A stretch of DNA of 64,000 nucleotides from an uncultured Peptococcaceae bacterium. Lineage in GTDB: Bacteria > Bacillota > Dehalobacteriia > UBA4068 > UBA4997. Location of the stretch: assembly GCA_937897635.1 (NCBI GenBank), contig CALCQI010000025.1, positions 53,749 to 117,748 on the forward strand, read 5' to 3'. The notes beneath the pieces were generated by a model, which searched no databases, was not told the DNA's origin, and saw only the letters and a program-made list of their open reading frames with translations. Position numbers and translations under genes: made by a program. Below, piece after piece: positions 4,265-62,885 of the stretch; the first letter of the stretch is position 1; each line of letters opens with the position of its first letter.

Positions 4265-5446
4265 TTATTTATCTTCAGACGCTATCGTGTACATGGTTTC
4301 CGCCATGACTTCAACACCTGTTTTCAAGCATTTTTCATCAATATTGAATAACCGATGATGCCATGGATAATTCTCACCTTCACAACCGCAGCCATTTAAA
4401 TAATAAACAGAAGGTGCATATTGGCCGTAATAAGCATAATCCTCGCCTGCCAACAGGGAATATTTCATTTCTGAAAGTTTTAATTCAGGCTTAGCTTGAA
4501 CCACTTTACGCACAACATCGGTTATTTCCACATTATTCATTACAGGCGGATAACCATATAAATAGTTCAGCTGGTACTCCACACCCCAAGCCTGGGTAAC
4601 CCCCCTAAGCACTTCATGCATATGAGCAAGGGCTATATCTCTTGTTTCATTGTTAAGGCAGCGCAAGGTACCTGTCATTTCCACCCTGTCAGGAATAATG
4701 TTCTGGGCAGTACCGCCATGGATAGTACCTATAGTAATAACCAACGGCTCCATAGGATTATTCATACGGCTGGCAATAGTTTGCAATGCCACAACAGCTT
4801 CAGCAGCTACAATAATAGGGTCGCGCGTAACATGAGGTGAAGAACCATGACCGCCCCTGCCTTTTATGGTTAAATGAAAGTCATCCGCCACCGCAAAAAT
4901 AGTACCGTTCTTCAGCGCAATGGTACCGGCCGGATAAAGCGGGGAAACGTGCTGCCCCAATACAACATCTACATCAGGGTTTTTCAAAACCCCTGCTTCA
5001 ACCATATCCCTAGCGCCTCCCGGCGGCTTTTCCTCACGAGGCTGGAAAATAAATTTAAGTGTACCACCGGGCGGATTTTGTATCATCGCCTTAGCTACAC
5101 CCAACGCAATAGTCATATGGGCATCATGGCCACAAGCGTGCATACAACCACGATTGCGGGAACGATACTCAACCTCGTTGCCTTCTTCAATGGGCAGGGC
5201 ATCTATATCCGCACGTAAAGCTACACATTTTTTTTGGGGTTCACCTTCTAAAACAGCAAGCAAGCCATAGCCCGCAATATTGCTTTTTACTTTTAGCCCC
5301 ATAGCCTTCAATTCCTTTGCCAAATAAGCAGAGGTTTCTTTTTCTGCCCCCGAAATTTCAGGATACATGTGCAAATGCCTGCGCCATTTAATTAATGCTT
5401 CCTCGTCAATAGCTTGACTAACCGATGCATTAACCACACCACTCAT
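4265..5446 (-). CDS. M20D-family amidohydrolase (aminoacylase / hippurate-hydrolase type).
   Basis: 'RADIDALP', 'HACGHDAHMTIALGVAK' and 'GRGGHGSSPH' metal-binding motifs. Start set at the ATG (MSGVVNAS…), which has AAAGGTGG 8 nt upstream; the track's first codon is a GTG. Confidence 0.85.
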   Translation of the reverse strand: MSGVVNASVSQAIDEEALIKWRRHLHMYPEISGAEKETSAYLAKELKAMGLKVKSNIAGYGLLAVLEGEPQKKCVALRADIDALPIEEGNEVEYRSRNRGCMHACGHDAHMTIALGVAKAMIQNPPGGTLKFIFQPREEKPPGGARDMVEAGVLKNPDVDVVLGQHVSPLYPAGTIALKNGTIFAVADDFHLTIKGRGGHGSSPHVTRDPIIVAAEAVVALQTIASRMNNPMEPLVITIGTIHGGTAQNIIPDRVEMTGTLRCLNNETRDIALAHMHEVLRGVTQAWGVEYQLNYLYGYPPVMNNVEITDVVRKVVQAKPELKLSEMKYSLLAGEDYAYYGQYAPSVYYLNGCGCEGENYPWHHRLFNIDEKCLKTGVEVMAETMYTIASEDK

Positions 5447-9530: not shown

Positions 9531-10362
9531 CTAATTTATAGGTGCCCAACGGAGGTTTAACTTCAGTGTTCATGCCAGCTTCATATTCACCGAACAGTTC
9601 ATTGGCGTCTTTCAGAAGCTTGCGGTTCAATTTCATAAGGGGAAGGCCTACAGGACATACGCGTTCACATTCACCGCATTCAATGCAGCGATCGCCAATG
9701 TGATAAGCACGGGTCAAACCATAAACCTGGTTTTCGGCACGGTTGTTCTGTTTACCCTGCCAACCTACCCTGTACTGATCCACATAACATTCACGGCAGT
9801 TGCAAGCCGGACAAACATTGCGGCAAGCATAGCAGCGGATGCATTTATCGTATTGCTTGGCCCAGAATTCATAACGTTCATCTGCACTTAAGGCTTCCAT
9901 AGCTTCTACATCTTTGAAGCGGTCGGGGTAGCCTTTTTCCTGTACGGGTTCACCAACCATTACATCAGCTTCCAGTGGGTTATGGTGCATACATTCAATA
10001 CACTTTTTAACCATTTCGCCTGTAACAGGATCTTTTTTGCCTTCACAGGGCAAACCAATGAGATAAACATTTTCCCTTTTTAGCTGATTATCTTGGATAA
10101 GACGGTTAACGGCACGGGAATCACAACCACGCACACATAAACCGATTTTCTTTTCGGGGTACATATTATCCATAGTATATTTGGCCAAAGTATTCAGGCA
10201 GTATTCATTCCAAACCAGTTCATCAACTTTGGCGGGTTCTTTTACAAATACGGGGCTGGTTTTATTAGTACGGCCTTTGCCCCAGCCTATTATATAACCT
10301 ACTTCACCGCTTTCCAAAAGCTTTTTGGCGGTTTCTCTCAATTTAGCCTGCATATCGCTCAT
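9508..10362 (-). CDS. flxC: FlxC-like polyferredoxin / iron-sulfur subunit.
   Basis: Multiple Cys clusters: 'CVRGCDS', 'CEGKKDP…CIECMHHNP', 'CIRCYACRNVCPACNC' and 'CIECGECERVCPVG'. Its RBS GGAGGGG lies inside the 3' end of the preceding mvhD-like gene. Confidence 0.65.
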   Translation of the reverse strand: MSDMQAKLRETAKKLLESGEVGYIIGWGKGRTNKTSPVFVKEPAKVDELVWNEYCLNTLAKYTMDNMYPEKKIGLCVRGCDSRAVNRLIQDNQLKRENVYLIGLPCEGKKDPVTGEMVKKCIECMHHNPLEADVMVGEPVQEKGYPDRFKDVEAMEALSADERYEFWAKQYDKCIRCYACRNVCPACNCRECYVDQYRVGWQGKQNNRAENQVYGLTRAYHIGDRCIECGECERVCPVGLPLMKLNRKLLKDANELFGEYEAGMNTEVKPPLGTYKLDDHEEYM

Positions 10363-10794
10363 TTAGTTCCCCTCCTTAAATTTGGTGTTGGGGCCTAATG
10401 CCGCTACATCAGCAGTAACTTTTTCAATAGTTTCTTTAAATTTGCCGGCCTCGGAACCGGAAATCCAACGAGCTTGGAAGCGGCCGGGTTCAATACCGTT
10501 ATATTGTAAAAATCTTTGCATCATCAAGAAGCGACGACGTGTGAAGTAATTGCCACTAACATAGTGGCAGTCGCCGGGGTGTCAGCCGGCCACCAAAATA
10601 CCGTCAATGCCTTTTTGGAAAGCACGCAGCACAAATTGGGGGTTTACCCTGCCGGAACAGGGAACACGCAATACGCGTACATTATCCGGATATTTCATCC
10701 TATTCAAGCCTGCCAAGTCTGCACCGGCATAAGCACACCAGTTGCAGCAGAAAGCTAAAATTTTAGGATTCCAGTTTCCTTCTTTTACAGACAC
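10363..10794 (-). CDS. flxD: MvhD/FlxD-like [2Fe-2S] protein with an in-frame UGA (selenocysteine) at 10582-10584. The ORF track truncates it at the UGA.
   Basis: Read-through translation gives '[52 protein letters not shown]…', which matches the conserved MvhD core (xGCxxGDCHYxxGN) with Sec at the first Cys position. A 7-bp stem-loop (tgccact/agtggca) begins 12 nt after the UGA at 10551-10569, which fits a bacterial SECIS. Confidence 0.7.
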
Positions 10795-17344: not shown

Positions 17345-17496
17345 CTTCCTTTAATTTTATTTTTGTATTGCTTTTTGATAAGCTTAATATTTTAAACAGA
17401 TAAGGCTATTAAAAGCTCAAAGCTTTATAAAAATACCGCTTTTGAATAGTTATTGTGTCCAAACTGTATTATAACATCTATCACATATATTTAAAA

Positions 17497-17527
17497 GCAA
17501 AAAATCCCAAGCTTAAGCTTGGGATTT
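17497..17527. terminator. Rho-independent terminator between the DUF1858 gene and hslO.
   Basis: Perfect palindrome atcccaagc-ttaa-gcttgggat flanked by A-runs and T-runs. Confidence 0.65.
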
Positions 17528-17571
17528 TAGTTTGGATCAAATTAAGAGTGGTGCTAAATTACAAAAAACTG

Positions 17572-17772
17572 TTATTTTTCCGCCACTTCATTAAGAGCTT
17601 TCATCAGGGCATCAACATCCATGCCATGGCCTATAGCCCCTTGTTCAATGGTTTCATACCTTGCTGCTACACAACCTAAACAACCCATGCCAAATTCCAT
17701 TAAAACACGAGCGGTATCGGGCCATTTTTCTACAATTTCTATAATACCCATATCTTTGGTAATAGTTGCCAT
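17572..17772 (-). CDS. DUF1858-domain small protein (hybrid-cluster-associated redox domain).
   Basis: 'MATITKDMGIIEIVEKWPDTARVLMEFGMGCLGCVAARYETIEQGAIGHGMDVDALMKALNE' matches the DUF1858 pattern. GGAGGTG is 4 nt upstream of this ATG; the track start is over-extended. Confidence 0.7.
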   Translation of the reverse strand: MATITKDMGIIEIVEKWPDTARVLMEFGMGCLGCVAARYETIEQGAIGHGMDVDALMKALNEVAEK

Positions 17773-17871
17773 AATACACCTCCAAAAAAATTTTACGTTA
17801 TTAGTATAACATATCTTGTCCATTTATCAAGTAGTTATTCGATATTTCCTACGGAACTACTAATCTTTATT

Positions 17872-23179: not shown

Positions 23180-23266
23180 TGTAATTTACCACCTTTTTAG
23201 TGCTTAATTTAATGCTTTTAACAAGCCAAAATATTATAACACATTTGGTGGCAATTGTATATTATT

Positions 23267-23533
23267 TTAATATTCTACCCCTTCATCCTGCAAAGCAATA
23301 ATACGCTTGTTCTTTTCCATAATACTTGCTATATAGCAGGCATTATGGCGTTTTAATTCCTTATTGGAGCGCGTCAGCTCGGCAACCTGGATTTTGCGTT
23401 CCAGTTCGGCTTGCTCCAATATGCGCAGCAGCACTCTTCTGCTCAAACGCATTTGCTCCAAACGTTCTTCTAAAGTATTTACTCTTTCACGCCAGAAAAT
23501 TTCTCTGCCGTTTTCCATTAGTTTTTGTTCCAT
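23267..23533 (-). CDS. Small coiled-coil protein, function unknown.
   Basis: 88 aa, Arg/Glu/Leu-rich heptad-like sequence; no recognisable family. Confidence 0.35.
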   Translation of the reverse strand: MEQKLMENGREIFWRERVNTLEERLEQMRLSRRVLLRILEQAELERKIQVAELTRSNKELKRHNACYIASIMEKNKRIIALQDEGVEY

Positions 23534-23587
23534 ACAGGGCCTCCTAAAGCTTATTCACCATATAGTATATTCAGTATGACCCTGTTT

Positions 23588-39488: not shown

Positions 39489-39720
39489 AGTAAGCCTCCT
39501 TAAGTAAGCGTATCAAACCATAAAAAACCACACACTCTATATCATACACTATTTTTAATGATTTAGCTATTTTTTTATAAAAATATCTTAAAATAACAGC
39601 TTCACACTAGCATATTTTAAAAAATATTCTAAAATAATAAAAAACACATGAAAACGAAACTGTTTTATTAGCGTCAAATCACCTAATGATATACTGCTTG
39701 AAAAGTTTTATTTTGAAATA

Positions 39721-39748
39721 AAAAACCCCCTCGTACGAGGGGGTTTTA
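39721..39748 (-). terminator. Rho-independent terminator downstream of the ferredoxin gene.
   Basis: ccccctcg-ta-cgaggggg stem, followed by a T-run on the minus strand. Confidence 0.7.
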
Positions 39749-39764
39749 TGTAGTAATCCACTGC

Positions 39765-39926
39765 TTATTTTTCAATAATAGCACCCACAGGGCAAGTTTC
39801 TACACAAGCACCGCATTCTACACATGCATCGGTGATTACGTAGATATCACCTTCGTTGATGGCTTCACTGGGGCATTCTGCCTTGCAAGCACCACAAGCC
39901 AAGCATTCATCAGTAATTTTATACAT
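39765..39926 (-). CDS. Clostridial-type 2x[4Fe-4S] ferredoxin (54 aa).
   Basis: 'CLACGACKAECP' and 'CVECGACVETCP' motifs. AGGAGG is 8 nt upstream of 'MYKITDE'. Confidence 0.8.
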   Translation of the reverse strand: MYKITDECLACGACKAECPSEAINEGDIYVITDACVECGACVETCPVGAIIEK

Positions 39927-39984
39927 TAAGAGCACCTCCTTTCGGTTCATCTAAATATCGCAATTTTATTTAAGAAAAGAAAAA

Positions 39985-42038: not shown

Positions 42039-42818
42039 TTATGCTTCTGCTTTATCAAGTTCGGCTTCAGCTTTAGCAGATTCTTCAGCTATTTCGTGAA
42101 CAGCTGCGGCATCAACAGCTGCTTTGGCCATAGACATACCCTGATTAGCTTCAATGATGGCATCTGCCATTTTACCGGTTAGTAATTTTACCGCACGGAT
42201 GGCATCGTCATTACCGGGGATAGGATAATCTATTTCATCGGGATCACAGTTAGTATCCACGATAGCTACAATGGGAATATGCAAACGACGGGCTTCCGCA
42301 ACCGCAATGCGTTCTTTGCGGGGGTCTACAATAAATATAGCACCGGGAAGTTTACGCATATCCTTGATACCGCCAAGAAAACGTTCCAATTTAAGTTTCT
42401 GGCCGCACAACTGGGAAACTTCCTTTTTGGGCAACAGCTCAAAGGTACCGTCTTCTTCCATGCGTTCCAATTCACGCAAACGGTTGATCCTTTGCTGAAT
42501 GGTACCAAAGTTGGTAAGCATACCACCCAACCAGCGTTCATTTACAAAGTACTGGCCTGCACGAAGTGCTTCTTCCTTGATTGCTTCCTGAGCTTGTTTT
42601 TTTGTACCTACAAAAAGTACAGCTTTACCTTCAGAAGCCACTTCTTTAATAAAGTTATAGGCTTCATCAACCTTATGAACGGTTTTTTGCAAGTCGATAA
42701 TGTAAATGCCGTTCCTTTCGGTAAAGATGTAGCGACCCATTTTAGGGTTCCAGCGACGGGTTTGGTGGCCAAAATGTACACCGGCCTCCAAAAGTTGTTT
42801 CATAGAGATTACTGCCAT
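42039..42818 (-). CDS. rpsB: 30S ribosomal protein S2.
   Basis: '[22 protein letters not shown]' motif. A 9-bp-stem hairpin sits in the leader at 42859-42890. Confidence 0.95.
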
Positions 42819-43040
42819 TTTATTTCCTCCTTTTGTTTTGCCTCCAACAAACTCAACTGGTTATTGCAGCTTGCGCCACGGGCAATAACCATCCTTTGCC
42901 GTGAGTGATAATAAACCACAATTTAGTATAGCAAACAAAAATATTTTTTGCAACCATATTATATTTGAATTTCGAGCTTTTTAACATTTTACCCTTATTT
43001 TAGGAAAAAAACCCGAAAATAAATACGATAATTCAAAATT

Positions 43041-44450
43041 TTATAGAATAAATCTGCTCATATCTTCATTTTGTGCTAACAGGGAAAGCTTGCTTTCCAC
43101 ATAAGCTTTATCTATATCCACATTTGTCAAAGCAGCATCCGGAGCCTGATACAACAAATCCTCCAGCACTTTTTCCAAAATTGTGTAAAGCCTGCGGGCG
43201 CCGATATTCTCGGTAGCACTATTTACCTGCTGGGCTATTGCAGCCATAGCACCTATGCCGTCTTCCGTGAAATGTATATCTACACCATCTGCTTGTAAAA
43301 GCGCTACATATTGCTTGACCAAGGAGTTTTGGGGTTCTAAAAGGATACGGCGAAAATCTTCTTCCGTTAAGCTTTCCAATTCCACCCTAATGGGAAAACG
43401 ACCCTGCAATTCGGGAATAAGATCAGAAGGTTTGGCCACATGGAAAGCACCTGCCGCAATGAACAGCATATAATCGGTTTTCACGGGGCCGTATTTGGTC
43501 ATTACGGTAGAACCTTCAACTATAGGTAAAATATCCCTTTGCACGCCCTCGCGCGAAACATCCTGCCCACCGCCGGTATGGCCGCTCCTTACCGCTATTT
43601 TATCTATTTCGTCAAAAAAGATGATGCCGGATTGTTCAGCCCTTTCGATACCACGTCCGGTAGCTTCGTCCGTATCTATAAGCTTCACGCATTCCTCCTG
43701 AATCAAAATTTTTCTGGCCTCCGCCACGGTAAGCTTGCGGCGTTTGGTTTTTTTAGGCATCAGGCCGCCAAACATTTCCTGAATATTGATGCCCATTTCG
43801 TCCATGCCGTTTATGGAACCTATAGGCATAGATTGCTCTTCTACTTCTATTTCTACCAAATGGTCTTCCATATAGCCCATGGCAAGCAGTTCCTTTACTT
43901 TTTGACGGCGGGTTTTGGCTTCCTCCGCCTCCACCTGAGAAGTTTCCCTGGTGTATTCATCGTCGTCATCATCCCTAACCCCTCCGAAAAATAGCTCCAT
44001 GGGATTGCGGTTGACTTTTTTATCCTTGCGGCCTGCGGGAGCCAAAAGATCCAACAGCCTTTCCTCCGCGGCGGCTTCGCCCTGCGGGCGCACTTTTTCC
44101 ATTTGCTCGTTTTTGACCATGCGGATGGCTATTTCCGTTATATCCCTAACGATGGACTCAACATCCCGCCCCACATAGCCAACTTCTGTAAACTTTGTGG
44201 CCTCAACTTTTAAGAAAGGAGCTTGCACAAGTTTAGCTAAGCGACGGGCTATTTCGGTTTTGCCCACACCTGTGGGGCCTATCATAATAATATTTTTGGG
44301 CATTATTTCGTCCTGAATAGCGGTACCCAAGCATTTGCGGCGATAACGGTTTCTTAAGGCCACCGCCACACAACGTTTGGCATTATCCTGGCCGATGATG
44401 TATTTATCCAGCTCGGCAACTATTTGCCTTGGGGTCAATTCATTCATCAT
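43041..44450 (-). CDS. hslU: ATP-dependent protease ATPase subunit HslU.
   Basis: '[18 protein letters not shown]' Walker A and an acidic I-domain. Confidence 0.95.
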
Positions 44451-44952
44451 TATATTACCTCTTTTCTGTTTTTATACTTTTGGCTAGAATTCGAAAGCAT
44501 TAAGCTATTTATTTATAATAAAAACTGCCTCTATTTAATCTTAACCATAAACTTAACCATAAAATCAAAGCATTAATAAAGGAGTTGATGTTATTTTGCT
44601 CCCTATCCCCCTTGACCCCTGCCCAGGAAAGGGGAGTTTTGCGCCCTAACCGCTTAGGCTACAGTTTTCAACTGCCGCTAAGTCGGTGCATTTGGCACGC
44701 GGATACGCCTCAAAACTTCCCCGTTGGATCCGCTAAATGGCATTGCGAACTCGTAATGTAAACTATCTTTCGCAATGCCATTTGCCTGTGCTTACCGCCT
44801 TATCAGCAAGAAAACTCTACGCCACGCTTTACGGGTGCGAAAAAGCATTTTTAATCCCAAACGCTAACTTATAATTCCAAGTATTAGCAAGGAATAATTA
44901 AAACCATTAAATGTATTTCGCATAACATAACATACATAATATTTAAAATCCT
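44451..44952. other. A 500 bp non-coding spacer between hslV and hslU, with a GC-richer, structured core at about 44590-44850.
   Basis: No ORF of 60 aa or more in any frame. Contains a 13-bp perfect inverted repeat (aaatggcattgcg … cgcaatgccattt, 44735-44783), a cccct…agggg hairpin and three CCGCT(T)A direct repeats. Composition is atypical for this genome. Confidence 0.5.
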
Positions 44953-45501
44953 TTATTTGGCTTCCGGTTCGGTTTCTTCCACTATAATATTGGTATTCGT
45001 GTAAACACAAATATCCGCCGCTATGGTAAGAGCTTCCTTAGCTATCTCCGCTGCGCTCAAATCTGTATGAGCTACCAAAGCGCGTGCCGCTGCCAAAGCA
45101 TAAGCACCACCCGAACCTATAGCAGCAATATTATCATCAGGCTCTATTACTTCACCGCTACCGGAAAGGATGAGAACTTCATCACCGCTTGCAACTATCA
45201 TCATGGCTTCCAACTGACGCAGCATTTTATCGGTGCGCCATTCTTTAGCCAAAGCCACTGCAGAACGTGTAAGGTTGCCACGGAATTCCTCTAGCTTTAT
45301 TTCGAATTTGTCGAACAGGCTGAAGGCGTCTGCTACTGAACCCGCAAAACCTACAACTACCTGATCCTTATACAGGCGGCGTACTTTACGTGCACCTTTT
45401 TTCATAATAATACTGTTACTTAAGGTTACTTGGCCATCTCCTGCTACCGCAACTTTGCCGTCTTTTTTTACCGCTACTATGGTAGTACCCCTTAATTCCA
45501 T
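44953..45501 (-). CDS. hslV: ATP-dependent protease subunit HslV (CodW-like, with a 5-residue propeptide before the catalytic Thr).
   Basis: '[11 protein letters not shown]…GDGQV' and 'GSGG'. Confidence 0.95.
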
Positions 45502-45537: not shown

Positions 45538-46452
45538 TTATGCTCGGGGATGACTTTTATTATAAGCATCCCTAATTGTTGTCATACTCAAATGGGTATA
45601 AATTTGTGTGGTCGATATATTTTTATGCCCCAAAAGCTCCTGCACCGAACGCAGATCCGCTCCATTTTCCAAAAGATGTGTAGCAAAACTGTGGCGCAAG
45701 CTGTGCGGGCTTACATTTTTATCTATAAAAGTTTTTTCAATATATTTATTCAAAATCATCCTAACACTGCGGTCAGTTAGCCTGCCGCCCCTTTGATTGA
45801 TAAACAAAGGCTCGTCTAAACCAGCTGTTTTGCCTGCCGCTATCCGCAAAGCCAGATAGGTTTGCACAGCATCAATAGCTAAATCGCCTACGGGCACTAT
45901 CCTTTCTTTACTACCTTTACCGATAACTCGCACAAAACCCGCATGGCAATCGATATTTTTGATATTCATGCTTACCAACTCGCTCACGCGCAAGCCGCAG
46001 CCATACAAAACTTCAAGAATACTCCTGTCCCTCATGCCCCAAAGATCCTCAGCCGTTACCGACATCAGGGCTTCTATTTCCTCGGGATACAAAAAAATGG
46101 GCAATTTTTTTTCCAGCTTTGGGCTTGCTACTTCCGCAGCAGGGTTATGCATAACAATTTCCTGGCGCATCAAAAAACGGTAGAAGGAACGCGCCGCCGA
46201 AAGCTTTCTGGAAATAGTGCGCTTATCCAGCCCCTGCCTTTGCAGATGCGCCAAATAATTACGCATGATAATATAGCTCAAGGCTTCAGGATCATCCAGC
46301 ACCGCTGTTTGGTGGTTTTCCTCAAGGTAGACGAGAAAAGATGCAAGATCCTTGCGGTAAGCCTGTATAGTATTGGGAGAATAATTTTTTTCGATCTGCA
46401 CATAGGATAAAAATTCTGCCGCCCTGTTTTTAAAACTGTTCAGTTCATCCAT
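45538..46452 (-). CDS. xerC: Tyrosine recombinase XerC/CodV.
   Basis: R…HxxR…Y catalytic residues ('HSLRHSFATHLLENGADLRSVQELLGH…Y'). Confidence 0.85.
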   Translation of the reverse strand: MDELNSFKNRAAEFLSYVQIEKNYSPNTIQAYRKDLASFLVYLEENHQTAVLDDPEALSYIIMRNYLAHLQRQGLDKRTISRKLSAARSFYRFLMRQEIVMHNPAAEVASPKLEKKLPIFLYPEEIEALMSVTAEDLWGMRDRSILEVLYGCGLRVSELVSMNIKNIDCHAGFVRVIGKGSKERIVPVGDLAIDAVQTYLALRIAAGKTAGLDEPLFINQRGGRLTDRSVRMILNKYIEKTFIDKNVSPHSLRHSFATHLLENGADLRSVQELLGHKNISTTQIYTHLSMTTIRDAYNKSHPRA

Positions 46453-46478: not shown

Positions 46479-47798
46479 TTAAACTTGCTCATGCAACAGA
46501 AAGTTTTTTATATCCGTAAGTGCTCTTTCTGCTAAAAGCCTGTTCTTTTCACTCTTTTTGCGAATGCGTTGCCCTAAAGGTTCCAGCAAACCAAATGTAA
46601 CATTCATAGGCTGGAAATTGGGGTTCGGTATTTGCAAATACCTTATAAGCCCACCCAGCGCTGTTGTAGAAGGATAAAGCAAGGCCGTTTTCCCTTGCTC
46701 CTTCCTTGCCGCATTGATACCCACAACCATACCGCAAGCAGCAGATTCCACATACCCCTCCACACCTGTTATTTGCCCTGCAAAACAAATTTGAGGCTTT
46801 GCTTTTAAGGATAAATCAGCATTCAAGAGCATAGGGGAATTCAAATAGGTGTTCCTATGCATTACCCCGTAACGCAGGATTCCTGCCTTTTCCAGCCCCG
46901 GTATCATCCTGAACACCCGTTTTTGCTCAGGCCAAGTTAAACGAGTTTGAAAGCCTACCATATTGAACATGGTTGCGGAAGCGTTATCTTGCCTTAACTG
47001 CACTATGGCATAGGCTTCGGTACCCGTATGCGGGTTTATGATACCCACCGGTTTCAAAGGCCCGAAACGCATGGTATCCACACCGCGCCTGGCCATAGCT
47101 TCAATAGGCATGCAACCCTGAAAATCCTTTTCTTTTTCAAAAACCTTTAGGGGCACTAATTCAGCACTCACCAGCTCATTATAAAAAGCAAGGTATTCCT
47201 CTTTATTCATGGGGCAGTTGATATAGTCACCCTCGGGCAAATCACCCCTGCCATACCGTGAAGCTCGAAAAGCAATCTGCATATCTATAGTATTACCATC
47301 CACTATAGGTGCCACAGCATCATGGAAATGCAGGTAAGGGCTGTTTATCTGTGCGGCAATTGCTTGGGTAAGTTTTTCGCTTGCCAAAGGCCCTGCCGCT
47401 ATGATCACAATACCACTGAATTGTGAGAGATCCGTGATTTCTTCGTGAATTATTTGGATATTGGGATGATTGGACAATGCCTTGGTAATATAGCTGCCAA
47501 AAGCTTCTCTATCCACCGCTAAGGCTCCGCCGGCCGGCACTTTAGAGGCATCTGCCGCTTGCATGATTAGGGAATCAAACAAGCGCATTTCCTCTTTTAA
47601 CAGGCCAACAGCATTGCCCAATCCCGCTGCGCGCAGGGAATTACTGCAAACAAGCTCACCAAAATAAGCAGTTTTGTGGGAGGGCGGCATTTTATGGGGC
47701 CGCATTTCATAAAGTTTTACTTTAATACCTCTTTGGGCTACCTGCCAAGCGGCTTCCGAACCTGCAAGGCCTGCACCAATAATATTAATAAATTGATC
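46479..47798 (-). CDS. trmFO: Methylenetetrahydrofolate--tRNA-(U54) methyltransferase TrmFO (Gid). Start is probably the TTG at 47798.
   Basis: 'INIIGAGLAGSEAAWQ' FAD motif. AGGAG is 8 nt upstream of the TTG; the upstream ATG at 47828 has no RBS. Confidence 0.9.
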   Translation of the reverse strand, partial: DQFINIIGAGLAGSEAAWQVAQRGIKVKLYEMRPHKMPPSHKTAYFGELVCSNSLRAAGLGNAVGLLKEEMRLFDSLIMQAADASKVPAGGALAVDREAFGSYITKALSNHPNIQIIHEEITDLSQFSGIVIIAAGPLASEKLTQAIAAQINSPYLHFHDAVAPIVDGNTIDMQIAFRASRYGRGDLPEGDYINCPMNKEEYLAFYNELVSAELVPLKVFEKEKDFQGCMPIEAMARRGVDTMRFGPLKPVGIINPHTGTEAYAIVQLRQDNASATMFNMVGFQTRLTWPEQKRVFRMIPGLEKAGILRYGVMHRNTYLNSPMLLNADLSLKAKPQICFAGQITGVEGYVESAACGMVVGINAARKEQGKTALLYPSTTALGGLIRYLQIPNPNFQPMNVTFGLLEPLGQRIRKKSEKNRLLAERALTDIKNFLLHEQV

Positions 47799-47886
47799 AG
47801 CCAATGTATTTTCTCCTATTTTTATCAAATAAGTATCTTAAAAGCTTATGCAAACGGGCGGGTTTACACCCGCCCCACAATTTCTA

Positions 47887-50004
47887 TTATTTTTTTGCTT
47901 TCCTGCCGCGCTTTACGGGCACAGCGGGTTTGGAAGGACAATCAGGGTTGGGGCAAATGGTTATTTTACCCGCCTGTTTGGTTTCCTTTTCCGTTAACTG
48001 CCAGCCACAGGATGGGCATTTTTCCTCAATAGGTTTGTCCCAGGAAATATATTTACAATTAGGGTAATTATCGCAGCCATAGAAAATACGACGGCTTTTG
48101 GACTTTCTTTGAATTATATTACCTCCGCAGGCCAAGCATTTAACACCTATAGCATTCACTATAGCTTTGGTATTATGGCATTCGGGAAAACCCGAGCAAG
48201 CCATGAATTTACCGAAACGCCCCATTTTGTAAACCATCGGTTTACCACACTTTTCACAAAGCTCACCTGTATATTCAGGAGCCAGTTCCACTTTTTCCAC
48301 TTTTTCTTCCGCCTGTTTTAAGGCTTCGGAAAAAGGCCCGTAAAACTGGCGCACTACCTCACGCCATTCCAAATTACCTTCTTCCACTACATCCAATTCA
48401 TCCTCCATTTTAGCAGTGAATTCGGTATCTATGATATTAGGAAAATTCTCTTTTAAAAGATCCACCACTACGGAGCCAAGCTCAGTAGAATAAAAGTGTT
48501 TGTCTTCCCTTACCACATAGCCCCTGGTGATTATTGTATCTATAATAGGCGCATAAGTACTTGGGCGGCCTATGCCCAATTCTTCCATCACTTTTACCAG
48601 CATAGCCTCAGTATAACGGAAAGGCGGCTGTGTGAAATGCTGATTAGACAACAATTCTTTAAGACTAAGCTCCTGATTTGCCTTTACCGCAGGTAAATTT
48701 CCCGTAGCCTCGGCATCCGTTTCGCTTGTTTCATTTTCATCCTTGCCTTCCATATAAACCTGCATGAAACCGGGGAAGCGTACAACACTGCCACTGGAAC
48801 GGAACAAGCAATCCGCTGCTTTAATATCCACGGTGGTGGCGTCTAAAACAGCGGCACTCATTTGGCTGGCCACAAAACGCTCCCAGATCAGCTTATATAA
48901 TTTATATTGCGCAGGCTTCAAATAGGGCTTCATTTGGCTTGGCGTACGATAAACCGAAGTAGGACGTATGGCCTCGTGCGCATTTTGCACTTTACCTTTA
49001 ACAGCAAATTCCCGCGGTTTAGCAGGCACAAATTTTTCCCCATAAACTTCACCTATAAAAACGCGCAAACTTGTCATTGCCTGCTCGGAAATACGGGTAG
49101 AGTCTGTACGCATATAGCTTATTAAACCTACCACGCCTTCTTTGCCCAGTTCTATACCTTCATAAAGCTGTTGGGCTATCTGCATGGTTTTTTTGGTAGT
49201 ATAACCTGCTTTACGATAGGCCTCCTGCTGCATACTGCTGGTAGTGAAAGGTGGCACAGGGTTTTTCTTCTTTTCCTTTGTGGTAATAGATTCCACTTTA
49301 TAAACGGCCCCTGTCAAGCTTTGCTTGACTTTTGCCATTTCAACTTCTGAACCTATAGAAACCTTTTTGCCATTTATTTTTTGCAGCCTGGCTGTTAAAT
49401 TGCCTTTTTCTGCAAGTAAAACTGCGTCAAGTGTCCAGTATTCTTCGGGCACAAAGGCATTTATTTCTTCTTCTCTATCGCAAATCAGCCTTACGGCTAC
49501 AGATTGTACACGGCCTGCACTCAGGCCTTTTTTTACTTTTGCCCACAACAAAGGGGAGATTTTATAGCCCACTAGGCGGTCCAAAACCCTGCGCGCCTGT
49601 TGAGAATTCACCCTGTTCATATCGATGGTCCTGGGTTCTTTGATGGCTCTTAATACCGTATCCTTGGTTATTTCATTAAATTCAATACGACAAAGCTCGT
49701 CTTCGGCCTTAAGATAGTGTTTTAAATGCCAAGCTATAACTTCCCCCTCACGGTCGGGGTCAGCAGCCAGCAAAATGCGGCTTGCTTTTTTGGCATCATC
49801 CTTAAGGATTTTCAAAATTTCTCCTTTACCGCGGATTGTTATATATTTAGGTTCAAAGTTATTCTCAACATCCACACCCAGTTCACTCTTGGGCAGATCC
49901 CTAACATGGCCCATAGAAGAACGAACTATATATTTACTGCCTAAAAATTTACTTATTGCTTTTGCCTTGGTTGGAGATTCCACGATTACCAAAGTTTTGG
50001 ACAT
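47887..50004 (-). CDS. topA: DNA topoisomerase I.
   Basis: TOPRIM domain 'LVIVESPTKAK' and C-terminal Cys4 zinc ribbons. Confidence 0.95.
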   Translation of the reverse strand: MSKTLVIVESPTKAKAISKFLGSKYIVRSSMGHVRDLPKSELGVDVENNFEPKYITIRGKGEILKILKDDAKKASRILLAADPDREGEVIAWHLKHYLKAEDELCRIEFNEITKDTVLRAIKEPRTIDMNRVNSQQARRVLDRLVGYKISPLLWAKVKKGLSAGRVQSVAVRLICDREEEINAFVPEEYWTLDAVLLAEKGNLTARLQKINGKKVSIGSEVEMAKVKQSLTGAVYKVESITTKEKKKNPVPPFTTSSMQQEAYRKAGYTTKKTMQIAQQLYEGIELGKEGVVGLISYMRTDSTRISEQAMTSLRVFIGEVYGEKFVPAKPREFAVKGKVQNAHEAIRPTSVYRTPSQMKPYLKPAQYKLYKLIWERFVASQMSAAVLDATTVDIKAADCLFRSSGSVVRFPGFMQVYMEGKDENETSETDAEATGNLPAVKANQELSLKELLSNQHFTQPPFRYTEAMLVKVMEELGIGRPSTYAPIIDTIITRGYVVREDKHFYSTELGSVVVDLLKENFPNIIDTEFTAKMEDELDVVEEGNLEWREVVRQFYGPFSEALKQAEEKVEKVELAPEYTGELCEKCGKPMVYKMGRFGKFMACSGFPECHNTKAIVNAIGVKCLACGGNIIQRKSKSRRIFYGCDNYPNCKYISWDKPIEEKCPSCGWQLTEKETKQAGKITICPNPDCPSKPAVPVKRGRKAKK

Positions 50005-62683: not shown

Positions 62684-62726
62684 TAGTATTTTAAGTTAAT
62701 TTATAGATATAAAACAAACGCGCACC

Positions 62727-62758
62727 AAAAGGAGCTCCAAAAGGAGCTCCTTTTGTTA
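62727..62758 (+). terminator. Rho-independent terminator downstream of the permease gene.
   Basis: Perfect 12-bp stem aaaaggagctcc/ggagctcctttt with a 4-nt loop, then a T-run. Confidence 0.7.
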
Positions 62759-62842
62759 TACTTAAATATTTTTATAAGAATATTATTAATATTATAGAAA
62801 ATATAGCAAAAAATTGTTAAAAGTTTATTTTTATAAAAACTA

Positions 62843-62864
62843 AAAGCCCCGTTAAGGGGCTTTT
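62843..62864 (-). terminator. Terminator downstream of ispA on the minus strand (bidirectional hairpin).
   Basis: aaaagcccc-gttaa-ggggctttt stem. Confidence 0.6.
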
Positions 62865-62885
62865 GATATATCTTTATATAATAAT

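Follow-up and report, generated by a model that had tools for sequence, protein, structure and literature searches.

Why are hslV and hslU, whose products work jointly in one protease complex, separated by several hundred nucleotides in an uncultured Peptococcaceae bacterium? The question is raised by a 64,000-nt stretch of contig CALCQI010000025.1 (positions 53,749 to 117,748, assembly GCA_937897635.1), called the window here, and it was first noticed in a reading of the letters alone, which we refer to as the sequence-only reading. That reading had put the two genes about 500 bp apart; the exact gap is 44451-44952, or 502 nt. We find a genuine insertion at the hslV-hslU junction that is non-coding, restricted to one species and, as far as it was searched for, single-copy. 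Its GC-rich core has a predicted fold of unusual stability. Our favoured reading, to which we give a probability of about 35%, is that the core belongs to the hslV transcript, where it would serve as a 3'-end or processing structure of the RNA; hslU would have an AT-rich leader of its own. Coordinates are collected in Table 1; sense refers to the - strand, which encodes both genes.

Distribution and coding potential of the insertion

The locus was compared with 80 species representatives that have the most similar HslV (58-79% identity) and with six sister lineages (72-77% HslU identity). The hslV-hslU gap measures about -25 to 79 nt in the representatives, with outliers of 178 and 199 nt, and 66, 208, 15, 24, 34 and 17 nt in the sister lineages. 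The claim that the two genes usually adjoin and that a 500-bp split is unusual is therefore supported, the relatives' gaps ranging from about -25 to 208 nt. Neither blastn nor nhmmer matched the insert in the 80 representatives or the six sister lineages, and a covariance model of the rod described below (216 positions, 65 pairs) recovered only itself in 749 kb. Comparison with relatives, which had been proposed as a way of telling a conserved insert from a lineage-specific one, decides for a species-restricted insert. A conserved cis-regulatory leader of hslU was rejected, as the relatives have neither a sequence match (nhmmer) nor a structure match (covariance model). The nearest non-identical HslU among 5.8 billion protein clusters is 77% identical; because the next HslU is this distant, the searched data hold no closer relatives from which covariation could be read.

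Within the species, at least 10 independent assemblies contain the insert. The identical HslV protein is encoded on at least 20 contigs (from NCBI metagenome-assembled genomes (MAGs), Logan, ENA and JGI), and all contigs that run across the gap have the insert at 97-100% identity. Judged from these contigs, the insert is real and fixed in the species. The differences within the species are single-nucleotide polymorphisms (SNPs) at 44869, 44845 and 44796 and a 12-nt tandem repeat reduced by one copy, seen as a deletion of 44540-44551 in loci L002, L006 and L008. The first SNP lies in the tail behind hslV and the other two in or beside the rod. An apparent 60-nt deletion in L008 is an N-filled scaffold break located exactly at the perfect hairpin of the core.

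Comparison of the whole core with plasmid and phage collections detected no second copy of the insert, nor did one turn up in the 64-kb window or among the relatives' loci. A pattern made from the hairpin arms matched, in metagenome contigs, only the same locus of the same species and 17 unrelated hairpins. The insert appears to be single-copy as far as these searches reached. A repeat search at the GC/AT boundaries found neither terminal inverted repeats nor a target-site duplication; the 8-mer AAAGCATT occurs at 44567 and at 44842, flanking the core, and no inverted ends lie behind the two copies.

The insert also has no counterpart among known RNA families. Rfam 15 gave no matches at gathering thresholds over the whole window, so that the Rfam check proposed for the gap returned no family, and at E<=10 the region 44351-45052 gave only ctRNA_pND324 (19.3 bits against a cut-off of 45, E = 4.7), a generic chance stem-loop. 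ARAGORN found no tRNA or tmRNA gene in the window. Comparison by eye with the consensuses of CIRCE, the CtsR box, attC, REP (GTAG plus hairpin), the T-box and group II domain V gave no convincing match.

The gap is uneven in composition. In 100-nt windows the core (about 44590-44850) has 43-57% GC and both gap ends have 23-24%, confirming the earlier description of a core richer in GC than its surroundings. The mean is 42% for the whole window and 45-50% for its coding DNA. The core is therefore modestly above the genes and far above the other non-coding DNA of the window, which the flanks of the gap, at about 23%, resemble.

No open reading frame (ORF) of 60 aa or more had been seen on either strand, and this holds: the longest has 58 aa (+ strand, 44585-44761), and those on the sense strand have at most 23 aa. 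Coding potential was scored as a codon-usage log-likelihood trained on 54 long ORFs of the window. Real 58-codon chunks scored +0.41 +/- 0.17 (5th percentile +0.13) and wrong frames -0.62 +/- 0.39. The six frames of the core scored -0.29 to -0.61 and the 58-aa ORF -0.19, all within the wrong-frame range and under the 5th percentile of the real chunks. When 44560-44880 was translated in six frames and the translations were concatenated, no protein matched at E<=10 among the 5.8 billion clusters, and a Pfam search of the two longest gap ORFs gave no match. A selenoprotein reading of the core was rejected, the stops in its frames being nearly all TAA or TAG. The gap is non-coding: a short protein gene, the finding named in advance as speaking against an RNA element, was not encountered by the ORF, codon-usage, protein-similarity or Pfam tests.

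Predicted structure of the core

The core (44585-44860) folds to -90.0 kcal/mol on the + strand, compared with -67.4 +/- 4.4 for shuffled sequences (z -5.12), and to -97.2 kcal/mol on the - strand, compared with -79.9 +/- 4.7 (z -3.66). None of 200 shuffled cores folded as well as the real one on either strand. As background, 194 windows of 220 nt were taken from the 64 kb, and about 1% of these reach a z below -5 on either strand; under the same coarse procedure (16 shuffles) the rod window gave -6.5 (+) and -2.5 (-). In these models the structure of the core exceeds chance expectation.

The minimum free energy (MFE) folds of the two strands have 64 base pairs in common, and the structure obtained with RNAalifold for the covariance model has 65. 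Both describe a Y-shaped rod, in which a closing helix pairs 44637-44696 with 44784-44842 and two hairpins stand at the tip. The predicted internal loops have at most 3 nt on each side, and a three-way junction forms the tip. One branch is the perfect inverted repeat at 44735-44783 that the sequence-only reading had pointed out; the repeat is present, with arms of 15 bp and an AU-rich loop of 19 nt in place of the 13 bp and 23 nt given at the time. By our estimate the chance expectation of a perfect 15-bp inverted repeat in 502 nt is far under one. The other branch hairpin is imperfect, and its 5' half could instead pair with 44631-44653 (23 nt, 78% complementary). The three spaced CCGCT(T)A repeats reported before are also present, as CCGCTWA at 44650, 44675 and 44730, the position 44685 having been wrong. 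The window contains 18 copies of this motif against 20.4 expected, which is no enrichment, and the clustering of three copies is only marginally unusual because the motif was chosen after looking.

Just beyond the rod on the sense strand lies a canonical G-quadruplex motif, the sole match to G3+N1-7 x4 in the 64-kb window with both strands scanned. By composition 0.44 such motifs are expected per window, and 0.6% of shuffled cores have one. The hairpin cccct…agggg that had been placed at 44606-44628 exists at 44608-44634, where it overlaps this motif. As far as its bases allow a prediction, the G-rich segment 44601-44634 can form either a GC hairpin or a G-quadruplex.

Possible transcription and function, and competing explanations

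The - strand run topA-trmFO-xerC-hslV looks like a single transcription unit as far as hslV because its spacings are only 58, 26 and 36 nt, and this tight same-strand run agrees with the earlier proposal that the insert sits within a likely operon transcript. We found no terminator-like site on either strand of 44300-45100, and local 3' folds at the core were weak (-6.2 kcal/mol, z +0.5, for the 3' hairpin of the + strand). The hslV tail has no significant fold (z +0.19) and no terminator, and fold statistics detected no significant structure in the AT-rich flanks of the core. A consensus scan gave four promoter-like matches, a number compatible with chance (2.2 +/- 1.6 expected); the best of the region is TCGAAA-17-TATAAT on the + strand. 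The weak -35-like hexamer TTAAGA on the - strand is overlapped by the tandem 12-mer of the hslU leader. These signals identify neither an intrinsic terminator nor an independent small RNA (sRNA) gene.

In the favoured reading, the order along the gene strand would be a 92-nt AU-rich tail, the ~206-nt Y-shaped duplex (44842 to 44637), the G-rich plug (44634 to 44601) and a ~150-nt AU-rich leader. The core would be transcribed as the 3' part of the topA-trmFO-xerC-hslV message, because no intrinsic terminator lies behind hslV and no convincing promoter before the core. The long duplex and the G-rich plug might then block 3'-to-5' exonucleases or serve as a cleavage site for a double-strand-specific RNase, and might thereby uncouple the hslV and hslU messages. 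HslU would be expressed by read-through, from its own AT-rich leader with a good GAGG ribosome-binding site, or by both. Also in favour of this reading are the place of the window's lone G-quadruplex motif, on the sense strand next to the rod, and two precedents: the varying hslV-hslU spacing among the sister lineages, and an RNA stem-loop in the E. coli hslVU mRNA (see below). The sequence-only reading had offered three options: a non-coding RNA (ncRNA) gene, an RNA element that decouples HslU from HslV expression, or the scar of a lost or inserted element. That the insert is non-coding, structured and lineage-specific is borne out; an ncRNA gene would be one without a convincing promoter or terminator on either strand.

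Several observations weigh against the favoured reading. The fold is more exceptional on the antisense (+) strand than on the sense strand (z -5.1 vs -3.7). The core lies ~150 nt from the ribosome-binding site of hslU and for this reason cannot directly gate hslU translation; the same distance, together with the lack of conservation, led us to reject a riboswitch-type leader. There is no obvious need for uncoupled expression, because HslV and HslU share a protease complex. No homologue was found, hence no covariation or conservation stands behind the RNA structure. Between two haplotypes the gap holds 3 of the 12 SNPs over 6.5 kb, which is 0.6% compared with 0.15% in the mostly coding flanks; this density, ~4x that of the flanks, looks close to neutral, though the numbers are tiny. 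SNP 44796 keeps pairing on the + strand only and 44845 on the - strand only, and as each keeps pairing on the opposite strand the two do not identify the transcribed one. Strand assignment by G-U pairs and SNPs likewise gave no consistent signal.

The insert could also be thought of as a functionless scar, a foreign fragment or decayed palindromic (MITE/ERIC-like) DNA kept as harmless, with hairpins that are unselected, and we consider this possible and almost as likely as the favoured reading. It would account for an insert that occurs in one species only and is missing in the closest relatives (gaps of 15-208 nt) and in 80 other species, for a GC content far above the flanks as in recently acquired DNA, for strong folds on both strands, which are typical of a DNA-level palindrome, for a SNP density ~4x that of the coding flanks, and for a core framed by no promoter or terminator. 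The two signs by which a neutral spacer was to be recognized according to the sequence-only reading, no Rfam match and no conservation in relatives, are both what we observed. Against a scar, the core has neither terminal inverted repeats nor a target-site duplication at its boundaries, and no second copy was seen in the window, the relatives' loci, plasmids or phages, with the arm scan of metagenomes leading back to the same locus only. Its donor sequence was not found in the searches made, the six-frame search gave no coding remnant, and the Y-shaped fold with its perfect 15-bp arm is unlike a random fragment when set beside the background windows. A neutral spacer also fits poorly with a ~260-nt block of ~50% GC and a fold z near -5 between flanks of 23% GC. 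If the AT-rich flanks reflect neutral composition, old neutral DNA would not be expected to stay GC-rich. Composition and fold together speak for DNA that is recent or else under constraint. An independent sRNA gene, most plausibly an antisense one on the + strand running from TCGAAA-17-TATAAT (44491-44519) to the U-run at 44848-44852, is in our view rather improbable. In its favour are the more exceptional + strand fold (z -5.1 vs -3.7, or -6.5 vs -2.5 with 16 shuffles), the aim of the best promoter-like match (10/12, with a perfect TATAAT) into the core on this strand, an outermost + strand helix (44597-44600 with 44844-44847) followed by TTTTT, and SNP 44796, which changes G-C to G-U on the + strand only. 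The C-rich run 44600-44625 would be unpaired or partly paired on this strand, and some Firmicutes sRNAs that bind to ribosome-binding sites have C-rich motifs. None of these signals is convincingly above chance: promoter-like matches are at chance level (4 vs 2.2 +/- 1.6 expected), terminator-like sites are missing, the local 3' hairpin folds weakly (-6.2 kcal/mol, z +0.5), SNP 44845 disrupts a + strand pair, all neighbouring genes lie on the opposite strand, and the sequence is without a homologue or Rfam match.

Two further explanations are unlikely. A DNA-level protein-binding or recombination site, either an operator at the 15-bp palindrome or a Xer/dif-like site near xerC, has a very small chance of being correct. 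The inverted repeat is perfect, an 11-mer identical to part of its arms recurs as operator-like repeats ahead of an apparent XRE-type repressor gene on an unrelated phage contig (described below), and the hairpin loop contains TAATGTAAACT, which we take to resemble the XerD arm of Bacillus dif, a likeness at chance level in the window. The arms are, however, 19 bp apart, a spacer atypical both for dimeric operators and for the core sites of tyrosine recombinases, and no regulator gene is adjacent. A Xer/dif site was looked for with the dif consensus (two 11-bp arms and a 6-bp centre) and rejected: only one arm-like 11-mer was found, at chance frequency (7 window matches to the XerD arm with <=1 mismatch vs 4.8 expected), the would-be XerC arm had no match, and GC skew is monotonic at the locus, without a switch. 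The least probable of all the explanations is a missed small protein gene, such as the 58-aa + strand ORF, or a decayed pseudogene. An AGGAG directly precedes the TTG/ATG start of this ORF, and other long gaps of the window hide small genes, for example a 55-aa ferredoxin. The spacing from AGGAG to the start is just 0-3 nt, and the codon-usage score is -0.19, where real genes reach +0.41 +/- 0.17 and the ferredoxin +0.46. The ORF has no Pfam match, and no frame has a match among the 5.8 billion clusters, own-species contigs included; from the missing self-match it would seem that the collection's called proteins do not include the 58-aa ORF.

The phage contig, L096, was the one match of the hairpin-arm pattern in IMG/VR viral contigs. 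At 9932-9977 it has operator-like direct and inverted GGCATTGCGAAA repeats immediately upstream of an apparent XRE-type helix-turn-helix repressor gene, an assignment judged from its translated start. These repeats share an 11-mer with the arms of the perfect hairpin, which by our estimate agrees with the chance expectation for a 20-base pattern in this collection.

Among known systems, the insert is most like the intercistronic palindromes of enterobacteria or the GC-rich structured intergenic RNA candidates; it belongs to neither, having no family, defined ends or covariation. REP/BIME, ERIC/IRU and YPAL-type elements are likewise long imperfect palindromes between co-oriented operon genes that can fold as RNA hairpins, and they stabilize upstream mRNA segments or create processing sites. 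They are, however, multi-copy families with recognisable consensus ends, whereas the insert is single-copy as tested, has no family, is longer (~206 nt) and branched, and comes from an uncultured Clostridia lineage. The GC-IGR structured ncRNA candidates of AT-rich genomes share with it a long GC-rich intergenic region, no ORF and a significant predicted fold; accepted ones rest on covariation among homologues, whereas the fold described here is a thermodynamic prediction for a sequence with no homologue found. The E. coli clpQY (hslVU) mRNA also has RNA secondary structure inside the hslVU transcription unit, a stem-loop in its 5' untranslated region that is reportedly important for message stability. 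That element, from a proteobacterium, is a short hairpin ahead of hslV, in contrast to a 206-nt branched rod between hslV and hslU, and its sequence is unrelated. 6S RNA is a rod-like RNA of ~200 nt with paired 5' and 3' ends as well; it was rejected as an identity for the core, which has a predicted rod without the large central bubble, no Rfam 6S match at E<=10 and no framing promoter or terminator. Bacterial G-quadruplex regulatory motifs resemble the G-rich segment in that the sense (non-template) strand of a transcription unit has a canonical G3+ x4 motif, but here the likeness is one of sequence motif, and the same bases may pair with the upstream C-run as a GC hairpin.

We think it doubtful, on the modelled structure, that the core is an undescribed lineage-restricted structured RNA made of a ~240-nt branched rod, a 15-bp hairpin and a G-quadruplex/hairpin switch and controlling the relative expression or stability of hslV and hslU. 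If it were a functional RNA, it would represent a rare case in which a large structured element between the cistrons uncouples hslV from hslU, normally a fused pair, and possibly a bacterial G-quadruplex/hairpin switch within an operon. The insert is an orphan candidate from one uncultured species with no homologues and has no bearing on a wider open question. It also gives reason for caution: when a long intergenic gap folds strongly and is rich in GC, this alone does not demonstrate a function.

Features of the locus and other observations in the window

Table 1. Genes, sequence motifs and predicted structures at the hslV-hslU junction (positions of the window).
Feature	Position	Strand	Basis or remark
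rpsB	42039-42818	-	ORF list and Pfam S2
hslU, 469 aa, downstream member of the split pair	43041-44450	-	ORF; Pfam AAA_2 2e-32 / AAA
hslV-hslU gap	44451-44952		502 nt, non-coding
Shine-Dalgarno GAGG	44458-44461	-	7 nt ahead of hslU ATG; read from sequence
Candidate antisense promoter TCGAAA-17-TATAAT	44491-44519	+	10/12 matches; directed into core
Weak sigma-70-like candidate promoter TTAAGA-18-TATTAT	44515-44544	-	9/12 matches; in AT-rich hslU leader
Tandem 12-mer CTTAACCATAAA x2	44540-44563	+	in hslU leader; 1 or 2 copies among strains
Canonical G-quadruplex motif GGGCAGGGGTCAAGGGGGATAGGG	44601-44624	- (sense)	just 3' of rod
CCCCTT/AAGGGG hairpin	44608-44613 / 44629-44634		overlaps G-quadruplex motif, alternative fold; pair list
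Y-shaped GC-rich rod, ~206 nt	44637-44842	either	MFE folds
Second, imperfect branch hairpin of rod	44699-44733		pair list
Perfect inverted repeat, 15-bp arms AAATGGCATTGCGAA / TTCGCAATGCCATTT	44735-44749 / 44769-44783		rod branch; 100% complementary
AT-rich tail behind hslV stop codon	44861-44952	-	92 nt, ~22-25% GC
hslV, 182 aa, upstream member of the split pair	44953-45501	-	ORF; Pfam Proteasome 3.4e-30
xerC	45538-46452	-	ORF; Pfam, XerC-type recombinase
trmFO	46479-47828	-	ORF list
topA	47887-50004	-	ORF list

Downstream of hslU, rpsB follows after 222 nt, close behind as had been noted. The spacer between them (42819-43040, -) has a moderate sense-strand fold (z ~-3.3) and no Rfam match, and it may be an rpsB leader. 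The sequence-only reading had also remarked that codY is missing behind hslU. It is missing, and this is not special to the locus: four sister lineages have contigs that reach a recognisable gene beyond hslU, and there rpsB follows, with or without intervening SMR-type (Multi_Drug_Res) genes, and codY is absent. As these gene orders indicate, the absence of codY is a trait of the clade, unrelated to the insert because sister lineages without the insert also lack codY behind hslU.

Scans for terminators and promoters in the longer hslV-hslU gaps of relatives (L092, L013, L030) gave no clear signals. In L093, whose HslU is 74% identical, the 604-nt hslU-rpsB gap (4375-4978) contains a perfect tandem duplication of ~140 nt (GTGACGGGAGCACGCCATCTGCGG...), which shares no sequence with the insert. 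Four loci (L011, a Selenomonadales MAG, and L029, L061 and L072) have hslV, and tblastn found no hslU in the downstream DNA searched; the two genes may lie apart in some lineages, or those contigs may end early.

The strongest-folding background window, 62684-62885 (z ~-5.0 on the + and ~-6.1 on the - strand), has convergent genes on its two sides; it probably serves as a terminator in both directions.

Most of the other long gaps of the window conceal small genes. Those at 39489-39984, 17345-17871 and 23180-23587 (-), within conserved gene runs, had been missed by a 90-aa ORF filter, and the small genes comprise a 55-aa ferredoxin, a 66-aa ORF and an 87-aa ORF. The ferredoxin is of the 2x[4Fe-4S] type, scores +0.46 for codon usage, and lies between genes that we take, from canonical gene order, to be frr and uppS. 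The 66-aa ORF might be DUF1858-like, and the 87-aa ORF is coiled-coil-like; apparent terminator hairpins stand behind the ferredoxin and the 66-aa ORF. An apparent 422-nt gap at 10363-10782 (-) is an FlpD/MvhD-type ORF (Pfam PF02662, 3.5e-53 with the stop read as Cys) that has one in-frame TGA, at the conserved position ...VAG[C]HPGDCHY.... This TGA is probably a selenocysteine codon, and for that reason the organism likely makes selenoproteins.

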